32,000 nucleotides of DNA from Nitrosospira multiformis ATCC 25196 (lineage in GTDB: Bacteria; Pseudomonadota; Gammaproteobacteria; Burkholderiales; Nitrosomonadaceae). The stretch lies in contig NC_007614.1 in the NCBI RefSeq assembly GCF_000196355.1, positions 2,580,001 to 2,612,000 of the forward strand, read 5' to 3'. The translations under genes and the position numbers were made by a program. Positions 25,960-30,169 of this stretch are shown here, piece by piece. A model generated the notes under the pieces. It was not told where the DNA came from, did not search any database, and saw nothing but the letters and a program-made list of their open reading frames with translations. Position 1 is the first letter of the stretch. Every line of letters begins with the position of its first letter.

Positions 25960-27225
25960 TTGGTGACACCTTCAACAATTCAGATAATCAGCGCAGCGCT
26001 ATTCGTGGTTGCACTCCTGCATACGTTTTCCACCAGATTTTTTGAGCGATTGGCAAACGCACGTCCCGCCCACGCGGGGATATGGCATTTATTGGGTGAA
26101 GTAGAAGTCGTGTTCGGCTTCTGGGCCATGATTCTCATACTGTTCATGTTTGCGGTGGAAGGTCGTGACAGCGCAATCCATTACCTGGATTCGCGTAACT
26201 TTACGGAACCCATGTTCGTCTTTGCGATCATGGTCGTCGCTGGAACAAAGCCGATCCTCCAGCTTGCCATGCTCTCGGTACGCGCCGTGGCGCAATTCAT
26301 TCCGCTGTCACGCGCGATCGTTTTCTACTTTACGACGCTTTCCCTCGTTCCACTGCTCGGTTCCTTCATCACCGAACCGGCGGCCATGACGCTGGCTGCC
26401 CTGATTCTTCGGGACAATTACTTCTCGCGCGGAATTTCGCCCAAGCTTAAATATACTACGCTCGGGGTTCTGTTCGTCAATGTCTCCATCGGGGGCACCT
26501 TGACCTCCTTCGCTGCCCCTCCCGTGCTCATGGTGGCGGGGAAATGGGGATGGGACATCTGGTTCATGATATCCACGTTCGGTTGGAAAGCAGCTATCGT
26601 CGTGATAGTGAATGCGGCGAGCGCCACGTTGCTATTTCGCCGCGAATTGTCCCAAGGCGGGCTCGGGCAGAATTTATCTGATCGTGGAGAGAAAGCGCCA
26701 GGTCTTCTTGTAGCTGTGCACCTCATCTTCCTGATCGGAATAGTGACGTTTGCTCACCATCCTGCCGTCTTTATGGGACTTTTCCTGTTTTTTCTTGGCA
26801 TCGCCCATGCATATCAAAAATATCAGAACCGGTTTATCCTGCGGGAGGGTTTGCTGGTGGCATTTTTCCTGGCCGGTCTGGTAGTGCTGGGCGGACAGCA
26901 GCAGTGGTGGTTGCAGCCGCTGTTGCTGGGAATGAGCAGCGAGGCAGTATTCTATGGCGCTACGCTGCTGACCGCAATAACGGATAATGCGGCCCTTACC
27001 TATCTTGGCTCGCTTGTAGAGGGGCTCTCAGATTCCTTCAAATATGCGCTGGTTGCAGGCGCGGTTACAGGGGGGGGACTCACGATCATCGCGAATGCGC
27101 CCAATCCTGCGGGAGTCGCCATTCTGCGTGATAATTTCGAGGACGGGACCATTCACCCGTTAGGTCTGCTGACAGCCGCAATACCCCCGACTATCGTGGC
27201 TCTCTTGGCATTCCGCTTGCTCTAG
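25960..27225 (+). CDS. Polytopic inner-membrane transporter-like protein (resembles the putative Na+/H+ antiporter family formerly DUF1504; family recalled from memory, unverified)
   Basis: 421 aa, hydrophobic throughout (about 10 or more predicted helices). GGGAG at 25955-25959; the start is TTG 25960 or GTG 25963. The stop TAG (27223-27225) lies inside the CTAG insertion site of the mobile element. Confidence 0.8.
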   Translation: MVTPSTIQIISAALFVVALLHTFSTRFFERLANARPAHAGIWHLLGEVEVVFGFWAMILILFMFAVEGRDSAIHYLDSRNFTEPMFVFAIMVVAGTKPILQLAMLSVRAVAQFIPLSRAIVFYFTTLSLVPLLGSFITEPAAMTLAALILRDNYFSRGISPKLKYTTLGVLFVNVSIGGTLTSFAAPPVLMVAGKWGWDIWFMISTFGWKAAIVVIVNAASATLLFRRELSQGGLGQNLSDRGEKAPGLLVAVHLIFLIGIVTFAHHPAVFMGLFLFFLGIAHAYQKYQNRFILREGLLVAFFLAGLVVLGGQQQWWLQPLLLGMSSEAVFYGATLLTAITDNAALTYLGSLVEGLSDSFKYALVAGAVTGGGLTIIANAPNPAGVAILRDNFEDGTIHPLGLLTAAIPPTIVALLAFRLL

Positions 27226-27241
27226 GGTCTGTTGACGTTTT
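27226..27241. repeat. Left terminal inverted repeat
   Basis: GGTCTGTTGACGTTTT, 81 nt upstream of the transposase ATG. Confidence 0.85.
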
Positions 27242-27321
27242 GATCTAAGGTTTGTCATTAGGAAGAAAACTCGTATTGTTAAAGCTCTCATACAGTAACA
27301 ACACGAGTTTTCGATGCCCCG

Positions 27322-27621
27322 ATGCTCAGTGACGAGCATTGGTCGAAGCTGCATAAGATTCTGCTGCAGAAGACCATCTACGACAAGCCTGATCTGCGCA
27401 TGACCGTCGAGGCCATGCTCTACCGGATACGCACAGGCTGTCCCTGGCGAGATCTGCCGCAGGCGTTTGGCTGCTGGAACAGAATTTACAAGCGCTTCAA
27501 TGCCTGGTCTACCGCGGGCAAGTGGATCGAGATTTTCAAGGCGCTTGTGGTCGAACCTGACCTGGAGTGGGCTTTTATCGATGGCAGTTATGCCAAGGCA
27601 CACCAGCATAGCTCGGCCGCC
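27322..27621 (+). pseudogene. IS5-family transposase, N-terminal ~100 codons only (DUF4096-type N-domain)
   Basis: MLSDEHWSKLHKILL...MLYRIRTGCPWRDLPQAFGCWNRIYKRFNAWSTAGKWIEIFKAL...FIDGSYAKAHQHSSAA matches the conserved IS5/IS427-type N-terminus. Similarity ends at ~27620, and the track ORF tail (to 27789) is out-of-frame Rhs sequence. Confidence 0.8.
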
Positions 27622-27628
27622 TCACGGG

Positions 27629-28543
27629 ATGATGGATCCTTCCGGAACAACGGTCTGGAGCTACGATACCCAGGGCCGGATTATTGGAAAAACCCAGGTT
27701 GTGGATGGTGCCAGCCTGGTTACCAGTTACGTTTACGATGGCGATGGCCGGCTCGCCAGCCTCACCTACCCTTCGGGGGAAGTCATTAATTACAGCTGGT
27801 CCAATGGCCAGCTGACGGGCATTTTCCGGGGAACCTCCCTAATTGCTTCTGGAATCACCTGTCACCCGTTCGGGCCGGTCAAATCCTGGACGCTCGATAA
27901 CGGGCAGAACATCGTCCGCAACTTCGACCTCGATGGGCGCATCACAAGCTACAGCCTTGGATCGCTTGCCTACGATGCGGCCTCCCGCATCACCGGCATA
28001 TCCCGGGGCGGCATCAGTATCCTCGGCAACAGCAAGACTTACGGCTATGATGCCACGGATCGGCTGATTTCCTTTAGCGATGGAACCTCGGCCGAGACCT
28101 ATGCTTATGATGCGTCCGGCAATCGGACTGGCCAGACCATCAACGGCATGGCCTACACCTACTCCGTGAGTTATGCCAGCAACCGCCTGGATGCGATGGC
28201 CGGTCCGGGAAGTTCCCTGCACTACAGCTATGATGCCAACGGCAGCTTGGTCAATGACGGCCAGAGGAGCTTTGGCTACGATGCCAGTGGACGCCTGAGT
28301 GAGGCGGTCGGCCTCGCAAGCTACAGTTTCAACGGACTGGGCCAGCGGGTCAAGAAAAATGCCGGTACGGTTATCATGTTTGTCTTTGACGAGGGCGGAC
28401 AGTTGATCGGAGAATACGGCGCAGCAGGCAATCCCATCCAGGAAACCGTCTGGCTGGACGACGTTCCCCTGGCTGTCCTCAGGTACGGCACCACCTACTA
28501 CATCCATACCGATCACCTCAACACCCCCCCGGCAGATTCATGA
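27629..28543 (+). pseudogene. Rhs/YD-repeat protein fragment (5'-truncated, frameshifted at its 3' end)
   Basis: YD repeats: YVYDGDGRLASLTYPSG, YGYDATDRLISFSDG, YAYDASGNRTGQT, YSYDANGSLVNDG, FGYDASGRLSEA. It ends ...YYIHTDHLNTP and then leaves the frame at a C7 tract (28524-28530). No N-terminal Rhs region or start context. Confidence 0.85.
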
Positions 28544-28574
28544 TGCCATCGGGCAAGCAGTGTGGGTATAGGAC

Positions 28575-29138
28575 ATGGGACCTTTCGGCGCCAATCCGCC
28601 GAACCAGAACCCCTCAGGACTGGGAACGTTCAGCTACAATCTGAGATACCCCGGCCAGTATCATGATGCCGAAACTGGCCTGTACTACAACTACTTCCGG
28701 GATTACGATCCGAAGACGGGGCGCTATATCCAGAGTGATCCGATTGGGTTGGTGGGCGGGATTAATACCTACGCATATGTTGAAGGCAATCCGGTCAGCA
28801 AGGTTGACTCGACAGGTGAGTTTGCGATTGCGATACCCGCCACTCCAGCGGTTATCGAAGCAATTTCTTACGTTGGAAGTGCAGCGGCAGCGGCGTATGC
28901 TGCGCATAAAGTTACTCAACAATGTGATGATGATAATGATCGGTGCAATAAGGCAAAGAGCGATGCTCAAAGACGTTATCAAAAGTTGGTGAATAAACGC
29001 ATTCCTCAGTACTTATCGGGTGGAACCAAGGGCCCTGATGAAAATTACTACGATTCGATACTTCAGCTTCAAGATGGGCTGAAGGACGCAATACGACGTG
29101 TACGGCTTTACTGCAAACCTCTGCCGCCTGATCTCTAA
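28575..29138 (+). pseudogene. Rhs core end plus unrecognised C-terminal (toxin-position) domain; continuation of the disrupted Rhs gene
   Basis: PFGANPP...[62 protein letters not shown] is the conserved Rhs core terminus. It is followed by a 105-aa tail ([46 protein letters not shown]...[13 protein letters not shown]). Only AGGA 1 nt from the ATG, so independent translation is doubtful. Confidence 0.75.
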
Positions 29139-29595
29139 CTTCTCAAGGCACCAATATTTCGAGCCTTCACCCCCACTTTAATCCTGCGCCAAGTTATACC
29201 GGGCCTGTCATCCAGGATTTTTGCACGTGTGAAATGGATAACTGTTCTTCCAACTACTGCTCAAGCTATCTGAAACAACGCTGCAACAAATCTGATCAAT
29301 TTCATTAGATTGAGCTGAAACAGAGGTTTAAGAGACTTATCCACAACCTATCCCGGGTCTATCCCCGGTAACAGGGGAAAACGGCATGGTGTCATGGTCG
29401 GCTTCCCAGAAAACTCATCATTGGCGGAATTGACTGGCAGACTCCATGAATCCGGCAAGATTGCTTCGGCGGCGTGCGATGGACCTTGCGGCCTGCTGGA
29501 AGTGAAACTGAGCTGACGTCATCCCCAAAAACTGTAGCAGTTCTAAATTAGAGTAAAGTCGCCTTCTGGCTCCCTTATTGAAGGAGTATGAAGCG

Positions 29596-29741
29596 ATGAA
29601 GAAATCCCGATTCACCGAGGTTCAAGTAGCGTATGCGTTGCGGCAGGCAGAGGCGATCTGGGCGCAAGCGAGGTCAGGCGATTGCGCCAGCTTGAGGAAG
29701 AGAATGCAAGGTTGAAACGGGTGGTGGCTGATCTGACCCTG
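29596..29741 (+). pseudogene. IS3-family transposase orfA remnant with internal deletion/frameshift
   Basis: MKKSRFTEVQVAYALRQAE (the typical IS3 orfA N-terminus) is joined out of frame to ...GASEVRRLRQLEEENARLKRVVADLTL (the leucine-zipper end of orfA). The HTH middle part and all of orfB are missing. Confidence 0.7.
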
Positions 29742-29764
29742 CATGATCCGCTGGCTACCAATGT

Positions 29765-29780
29765 AAAACGTCAACAGACC
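29765..29780. repeat. Right terminal inverted repeat
   Basis: AAAACGTCAACAGACC, a perfect reverse complement of 27226-27241. Confidence 0.85.
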
Positions 29781-29805
29781 CTAGGGAACCGCTGAACAAA
29801 TCCCT

Positions 29806-29866: not shown

Positions 29867-30169
29867 TCAATAACCTTCCGGGACAGATGCTTCGTTCTGC
29901 TTCAAGGCGCGCAAGCCGTCATTTTCGACACGTAACGCTTCGACCTCCTTATGCAGTCTTCCTATCGCCATATGTTCGCGCAACATGGTCGGCAGCGTAA
30001 CGAGCGCTCCTATGAGCGCCCCCAGACCGAAGCAGACTGCGATCACAACGGCAAGCGATGCATCTGCACGCCAAAGCAAGAATATGACGCTTACCTCAAC
30101 AGCGTTCTGAACCGCAAACGTGACAATGAGGAAAACGATGACGAGTGCTGCAATCAATTGCAATTGCAT
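29867..30169 (-). CDS. LapA-domain (DUF1049) small inner-membrane protein
   Basis: MQLQLIAALVIVFLIVTFAVQNAVEVSVIFLLWRADASLAVVIAVCFGLGALIGALV followed by a coiled-coil tail. AAGGAG 5 nt upstream supports ATG 30169; the track start is 30244. Confidence 0.8.
   Translation of the reverse strand: MQLQLIAALVIVFLIVTFAVQNAVEVSVIFLLWRADASLAVVIAVCFGLGALIGALVTLPTMLREHMAIGRLHKEVEALRVENDGLRALKQNEASVPEGY

Follow-up and report, generated by a model that had tools for sequence, protein, structure and literature searches.

Does a block of DNA that has the ends of an insertion sequence (IS) without the body of one serve as a vehicle for toxin genes, or is it what a single past insertion has left behind? This question is raised by a block of 2.56 kb in the nitrifying soil bacterium Nitrosospira multiformis, strain ATCC 25196, which lies between a gene for a putative Na+/H+ antiporter and a gene for a LapA-domain membrane protein and which holds, between perfect inverted repeats, part of an Rhs gene with its toxin-type tip. 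We analysed the 32,000-nucleotide stretch in which it is found (contig NC_007614.1, positions 2,580,001 to 2,612,000), hereafter the window, and all coordinates are those of the window unless another sequence is named. A preliminary description of the window had proposed that the whole unit may have transposed as a non-autonomous element with transposase supplied in trans, and that this would be a way for IS ends to mobilise polymorphic-toxin cassettes; as an alternative it had suggested that illegitimate recombination later replaced the interior of an IS that had landed at this site.

We consider it firmly established that the block goes back to a single TA-targeted transposition by an ISPa67-like element, that function was then lost and that what is now present is an immobile relic. 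As to the foreign DNA in its interior, we lean, without great confidence, towards a reading in which the block is an immobile, non-functional fossil of that one transposition event and the debris accrued in place.

The insertion and its ends

The 16-mer GGTCTGTTGACGTTTT is found at 27226-27241 on the forward strand and again, in exact reverse complement, at 29765-29780, as had been described, and these were its only 2 matches in the 32-kb window when up to 3 mismatches were permitted (shuffle mean: 0.20). With the abutting CTAG the perfect inverted repeat reaches 20 nt (27222-27241 and 29765-29784) and encloses the 2.56-kb block. Deletion of the interval in silico gave ...TTGCTCTAGGGAACC..., and the site was found empty and uninterrupted in two related Nitrosospira metagenome contigs (L050 and L051), where it reads ...CCGCTTGCTTTAGGGAACC... 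with a single TA and can also be written as ...TTGCTTTAGGGAACC... These contigs have ~90% nucleotide identity to both flanks and join the flanks directly at one TA, from which it follows that the whole interval is one insertion. The 2.56-kb block is therefore a genuine insertion, made at one TA that lies in a YTAG site.

The target duplication is 2 bp (TA) and not 4 bp, with its left copy at 27223-27224, inside the CTAG of 27222-27225, and its right copy at 29782-29783. The duplication claimed in the preliminary description is thus real, as TA is present on both sides of the block and only once in the empty site; its reading as a 4-bp, YTAR-type duplication was wrong in detail for this IS group, as the outer bases are not duplicated. 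CTAG is palindromic, and for that reason resembles a 4-bp duplication. We rejected a 4-bp CTAG duplication on the basis of miniature elements with the same ends (see below), whose outer flank bases differ among copies. In 16 of the 20 listed end pairs, which come from Agitococcus and related Moraxellaceae loci, the flanks had the form xTAG...CTAy, with the element starting at the G and ending at the C, and the outer bases were unrelated to each other. For the same reason we read the inverted repeat proper as 17 nt, GGGTCTGTTGACGTTTT, with its left copy at 27225-27241 on the forward strand and its right copy at 29765-29781, so that the element proper is 2557 bp long (27225-29781).

By sequence similarity, the ends are assigned to an ISPa67-like element of the IS5 family. 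Positions 27217-27621 of the window were 93.2% identical to a metagenome contig (L039, 550-962) and positions 29738-29785 were 91.7% identical to L039 1368-1415, the two stretches being the opposite ends of one 852-bp element in L039 with CTAG on both sides. This full-length IS, which apparently has no name of its own, occupies L039 559-1410 (metagenome ERZ27298539) and has the ends GGCCTGTTGACGTTTC and GGTCTGTTGACGTTTC, with which the 17-nt repeats of the window align at 14/16 and 15/16 positions; they also align with the ends of ISPa67. The IS whose existence the preliminary description had to suppose therefore has a full-length counterpart with near-identical ends. The L039 element encodes an OrfA with a DUF4096 domain and an OrfB with a DDE_Tnp_1 domain, and a slip of the frame by -1 at G GGA AAA G leads to a transposase of 249 aa, with 80.7% identity along its entire length to that of ISPa67; the latter, unlike the frameshifted L039 protein, lies in one single frame. 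ISPa67 itself, on a Raoultella plasmid (L049), matched the leftmost 391 bp of the unit at 76.6% identity and has ends of the same style in CTAG flanks. Elements of the DUF4096 and DDE_Tnp_1 type, often with two open reading frames (ORFs), make up what we take to be the IS427-like subgroup of the IS5 family.

What remains of this IS in the window is nt ~1-396 and the last 43 nt, ~405 nt having been lost, including the entire catalytic domain. The left part of the body (27242-27621, forward strand, ~nt 18-396 of the 852-bp element) contains a leader hairpin, the original ATG at 27314 and the first ~100 codons of the transposase, which match DUF4096 (PF13340, E = 1.4e-22); just past the original ATG, after codon 3-4, a 4-nt deletion shifts the frame. 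Only the DUF4096 part is kept and the DDE catalytic part is gone, while the L039 relative has both domains. The earlier statement that only ~100 codons of an IS5-family transposase survive is right for the transposase, but the last 43 nt of the IS are also preserved at the right end (29738-29780, within a right-end feature of 29738-29781 on the forward strand that includes the right inverted repeat). At 2557 bp, as against 852 bp in L039, the block is outside the ~0.85-kb length of the IS, and as its transposase is also incomplete it is derived from an ISPa67-like element of the IS5 family and is not itself an IS in working order.

The leader hairpin is a 17-bp stem-loop at 27265-27312, which ends 2 nt ahead of the transposase ATG. 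It is kept across the window, L039 and ISPa67 via 4 compensatory pairs, and probably masks translation initiation on read-through transcripts. A related IS5-family transposase (P0003) carries a clean internal deletion of the DDE core, which joins ...SKIHL directly to VENAFARLKHY..., and judging from this example internal-deletion derivatives evidently can arise readily in this IS group.

Exact GGGTCTGTTGACGTTTT termini were also found on a family of 265-bp miniature transposable elements with inverted repeats (MITEs) in Agitococcus lubricus DSM 5822 and in related Moraxellaceae metagenome-assembled genomes (MAGs). Among the fetched loci (L004, e.g. 218-482, and L007, L011, L012, L014, L016, L017, L021, L023, L032, L033 and L036) there were twelve 265-bp copies as well as shorter forms of 46-158 bp, with TA duplications, and no related transposase lay within 8 kb of any copy. 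These elements, which are without a transposase, show that the ends of this IS group work in trans, which makes mobilisation of a transposase-less unit feasible.

On the left, the insertion adjoins the antiporter gene (25960-27225, forward strand; PF07399, E = 1.6e-193). The TAG stop codon of this gene (27223-27225) consists of the left TA of the duplication and the first G of the IS, and because the stop was rebuilt in this way the reading frame was not altered by the insertion. The antiporter orthologues in L050 and L051 end ...CTT TAG GGA..., in agreement with the earlier statement that removal of the interval restores the transporter stop codon. A 'shared hairpin' had been said to follow this stop codon. 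We dropped it, also as a candidate terminator: the sequence downstream of the insertion folded no better than its shuffles (z = -0.28) and was not called as a terminator. On the right lies the LapA-domain gene (29867-30169, reverse strand; PF06305 and gene calls), which is convergent with the antiporter gene.

Debris in the interior

The missing ~405 nt of the IS are replaced by 2.1 kb of pseudogene debris (27622-29737), in which, as previously described, an Rhs C-terminal cassette is accompanied by other gene scraps. The largest piece is the C-terminal third of an Rhs (YD-repeat) shell with its core end (27622-28831, forward strand). It matches PF05593 (E = 4e-21), has 41-43% identity to 1409-aa Rhs proteins over their residues ~896-1194 and is without an N-terminus. 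The core end motif DPIGL is located at ~28737-28751 and is followed by a low-GC tip (28832-29132, forward strand). The piece is a pseudogene: a TGG to TAG change gives a nonsense codon at 28569-28571 in both strains compared, and the ATCC 25196 window, but not the second strain, has one extra C in the C-run at 28524-28530. The annotated 187-aa 'protein' begins at an internal ATG past the nonsense codon.

The tip was 97.3% identical to positions 309-608 of another contig (L043). There the tip extends 17 codons beyond the point at which that of the window is cut, to ...PPEITEWERAANQFIPPQH; after it comes an ORF of 180 aa which is a probable immunity gene. No immunity gene was found beside the tip in the window, either among the ORFs of the interior or by comparison with L043. 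The tip is a toxin-type domain with no Pfam match, and its family (L043 292-1214, window 28832-29132 and also P0122-P0124), which has the pattern ...KRIPQY.SGG.RGPD...LYCK...EWER.AN, is without a Pfam model; the 180-aa ORF of L043 is likewise outside Pfam families. With regard to a donor for the Rhs piece, a first word-indexed search, which covers proteins of up to ~1.75 times the query length, returned self matches and others of at most 48% identity, and in an exhaustive protein search the best full-length Rhs proteins were only 41-43% identical.

In enterobacteria, orphan Rhs C-terminal cassettes are silent rhs-CT/immunity modules located downstream of main rhs genes. It could be argued that the Rhs fragment is a working cassette of this type, held in reserve and able to recombine into a main rhs gene, and its layout would fit, as the end of the core with a DPxGL motif is followed by a low-GC variable tip. 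A second Rhs remnant, ~90 kb away on the same contig, also shares 437 bp with it at 89% identity. We nevertheless think this very unlikely. The fragment adjoins no rhs gene and is surrounded by IS ends; it has neither an open frame through core and tip nor an adjacent immunity gene, carries the nonsense codon in both strains and the additional frameshift in the strain of the window, and has a tip that is 17 codons short. No full-length Rhs of more than 43% identity was found that could act as a recombination partner.

The second Rhs remnant (L040 9280-12443) lies at ~130 kb on contig FNVK01000006.1. Its similarity is to window 28389-28825 and it has a different tip of 207 aa. The frame of this remnant, too, is disrupted upstream of its core end, within that same C-run region. 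It is located in an AT-rich island beside a tRNA-like sequence (read by eye as tRNA-Ser) with a partial duplicate, and on its 3' side are a 123-aa ORF, an MqsR toxin gene and two MqsA antitoxin genes.

Beyond the Rhs tip is a filler of 381 bp (29133-29513) with no recognisable gene, which had no Pfam match in any frame and no DNA match in the fetched loci or plasmids. The rest of the debris is probably the left end of an IS3-family element (29514-29741, forward strand). A reconstructed 52-aa fragment scored 23.9 bits against HTH_Tnp_1, for which the cutoff is 24.1 (E = 5e-5), and the DNA was 80-88% similar over ~50-70 nt to annotated IS3-family transposase genes. Its orfA starts at ATG 29597, has an internal deletion and is cut after ...VVADLTL; its inverted repeat probably starts with TGACGTCATCCCC. 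The junction between this piece and the right end of the IS5-family element would fall within a shared CCTG (29738-29741), which is suggestive of microhomology. Short-read contigs from other N. multiformis runs (L038, L045 and L046-L048) all break inside 29543-29625, in the IS3-like piece, which suggests that there are further copies of the IS3-family element in those genomes. Overall, the interior contains at least 3 illegitimate junctions and several inactivating mutations, and these junctions fit repeated deletion acting on DNA not under selection.

Inheritance, copy number and the search for an intact IS

The window was 100% identical to contig FNVK01000006.1 (L001) over 7 kb. The two 'Rhs' ORFs correspond to ABB75584.1 and ABB75585.1, which are GenBank proteins of ATCC 25196 on a 3.18-Mb contig, and ABB75584.1 spans the left junction with 100% identity to the window. 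GCA_900107715.1 carries the block at the identical site with identical junctions, as do assemblies from the short-read runs SRR4235492, SRR4235482, SRR9437466 and SRR9437467. Compared with GCA_900107715.1, there were ~14 differences in the 2.56 kb of the block, while 5.9 kb of left flank had 35, i.e. the block has diverged from the second strain as much as its flanks have. As the block is common to the strains and has the same junctions in each, it was in place in their common ancestor, and its inheritance has been vertical.

These data also bear on whether the junctions could be assembly chimeras, or the repeat a generic intergenic repeat unrelated to transposition. The breaks in the short-read contigs between 29543 and 29625 show that there is a repeat at that point. 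However, both junctions are covered identically by a second strain and by several independent assemblies, a GenBank protein crosses the left one without a mismatch, the repeat corresponds to the termini of a full-length IS and to those of miniature elements with TA flanks, and the empty site is present in relatives. We therefore rejected assembly chimerism, a caution raised in the preliminary description, and regard either form of artefact as extremely improbable.

No second copy of the unit was found, either in the protein clusters, where those spanning it hold only N. multiformis entries of this locus, or in the N. multiformis assemblies reached, and so the copies at other sites which would be expected of a moving unit did not appear. 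The GenBank annotation of ATCC 25196 has one ABB accession for each protein of the block. Given clusters that represent this locus only and one accession per protein, the unit is single-copy. Proteins spanning its junctions had no other occurrence among 5.8 billion protein clusters.

We also looked for an intact relative of the IS in the host. Among the protein clusters listed, which cover the same range of lengths as in the Rhs search, there was no close intact OrfA in N. multiformis, where only the remnant itself exceeded ~70% identity; the best non-self match to OrfA was a metagenome protein at 94% identity, and the closest proteins from named nitrifiers were at ~70%. A scan of species-representative genomes for the termini, using a degenerate 20-mer, returned 34 loci and no intact IS with the exact 16-mer. 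Most of these loci were Agitococcus or Moraxellaceae miniature elements, accompanied by scattered single, probably chance, matches, and none had a related transposase within 8 kb except for a degraded remnant in L015. It should be noted that the scan did not return a locus from ATCC 25196, although both ends of the block fit the pattern; this genome was evidently outside the scanned set, and the scan is therefore uninformative about other copies in the source genome.

The remnant in L015 (546-686), a MAG labelled as N. multiformis, is a solo left end of the IS of 141 bp, with 88% identity and without a TA flank or transposase. We take it as evidence that the IS was active in this lineage in the past. 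Text searches returned nothing on this locus.

Entry of the debris and what the block represents

How, then, did 2.1 kb of foreign DNA come to lie between the two ends of a single element? The data show that an ISPa67-like element (~852 bp, with 17-nt GGGTCTGTTGACGTTTT ends) inserted at the TA of the antiporter stop-codon region in an ancestor of N. multiformis, duplicating the TA. In the reading that we lean towards, other mobile DNA, probably including an IS3-family element, would then have inserted into, or recombined with, the body of the resident IS, and several short-homology deletions would later have trimmed the DNA between the two ends. Deletions running outwards would have hit the antiporter gene or lapA and would have been lost; with deletions tolerated only between the host genes, both ends would have survived. 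We favour this sequence of events because the block is single-copy, because no transposase source was found, and because its pervasive decay points to long residence and repeated deletion.

Several observations weigh against entry in place. At this TA an intact IS was seen in no strain, which leaves entry in place with no intermediate to point to. The inner boundaries do not coincide with the ends of mobile elements, so that a nested insertion must be postulated together with deletions that later removed its traces. For the Rhs piece no close parent was found in N. multiformis or elsewhere (41-43% identity at best); it looks imported, and its arrival between IS ends would be easier to picture. 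The same 17-nt ends move transposase-less elements in Agitococcus, and mobilisation in trans is feasible. Finally, the test for an intact copy in N. multiformis was an indirect one, based on protein clusters and a length-limited list of matches, and ATCC 25196 was evidently outside the genome scan.

The alternative is that the block transposed here as one piece by means of its two IS ends, which we regard as possible though the less probable course. It could have done so either as a mobile insertion cassette without a transposase, for which an intact copy acted in trans, or as a composite transposon in which an Rhs/IS3 segment lay between two IS copies that later lost their inner halves by deletion. 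The perfect 17-nt ends, the preserved last 43 nt and the clean TA duplication are what a mobilisable element needs, and many 265-bp transposase-less elements in Agitococcus are bounded by these ends. The internal-deletion derivative P0003 of a related IS also speaks for it, as does the L015 remnant, according to which the IS was once active in the lineage. The absence of a close host parent for the Rhs cargo and the 97% identity of the tip to a cassette in the unrelated contig L043 suggest import. Against this, only one copy is known, always at one locus; the junction-spanning proteins occur nowhere else among the clusters; in the protein clusters N. multiformis showed no intact IS close to this one; and what the block carries is junk, marked by several deletion junctions in its interior, so that a composite origin would need as many ad hoc deletions as entry in place. 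The block may once have been a composite transposon, but the two end pieces, nt 1-396 and 810-852 of the IS, do not overlap and add up to less than one IS, where a composite would have two IS copies.

We consider it rather unlikely that the N. multiformis lineage received the block, or a larger IS-flanked precursor, from outside, with an ISPa67-like transposase inserting it by way of both ends. If this did occur, IS5-family ends would have carried an orphan Rhs toxin cassette from one genome to another, which would represent a route of mobile-insertion-cassette type for the shuffling of polymorphic toxin tips, and the present copy would be a dead end. The data cannot separate entry in place from arrival between the IS ends; each belongs to a type of event already known, the former a scrambled IS and the latter a mobile insertion cassette or composite transposon. 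In either case, the idea in the preliminary description that IS ends serve here to spread polymorphic-toxin cassettes was not borne out, in view of the missing second copy, the broken Rhs pseudogene with no immunity gene, the vertical inheritance and the lack of a close intact IS in N. multiformis; this block provides no evidence that toxin cassettes spread via IS ends.

The block resembles several known systems. It shares with ISPa67-like IS5 elements ends of the GGGTCTGTTG... type in CTAG, a DUF4096 N-terminus and the leader hairpin, and differs from them in that ~405 nt of the body, with the whole DDE part, are replaced by 2.1 kb of foreign debris and the transposase stub is frameshifted. 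Mobile insertion cassettes (MICs) are passenger genes between inverted repeats of IS type, which have no transposase and are moved in trans (PMC3129680; for an example see PMC5444012). In structure the block corresponds to this definition, with IS ends, a target duplication, DNA not concerned with transposition inside and no working transposase. It differs in mobility, being found at one locus only in the N. multiformis assemblies reached, where a MIC would have several copies or sites; no cognate transposase was found in the host by protein clusters, the passengers are pseudogene fragments, and the 100-codon transposase stub and the IS3-family scrap are signs of decay and not of a cassette by design. 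The MITEs of Agitococcus have the same 16-17-nt termini and TA duplications, but the block is 2557 bp long, single-copy and filled with foreign DNA, and has only the terminal ~17-20 nt in common with them. The nested or scrambled IS remnants known as 'IS graveyards' are similar in that two IS families and gene debris are joined internally in one intergenic spot, and differ in that here, unusually, neither the outer ends nor the target duplication has been touched, and this gives the block its cassette-like look. Overall, the block is a further example of a familiar scrambled IS relic, one that has retained both its ends.

As a tidy case of IS ends and a target duplication that have outlived the IS body, the block carries little weight alone. 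Such relics can, however, pass for cassettes with cargo, and because of them pieces of pseudogenes come to be annotated as 'RHS repeat-associated core domain' proteins (ABB75584 and ABB75585). The carriage of passengers by IS ends is already a named category (PMC3129680) and no new principle is involved; a second copy of the mosaic, if ever found, would document the mobilisation of an Rhs cassette by IS ends, still within the concept of the MIC. As a side result, this IS group duplicates TA, for which a palindromic CTAG can give the appearance of 4 bp, and the presence of the same 17-nt ends on a MITE family in the distant gammaproteobacterium Agitococcus indicates that this pairing of ends and transposase is widely shared.

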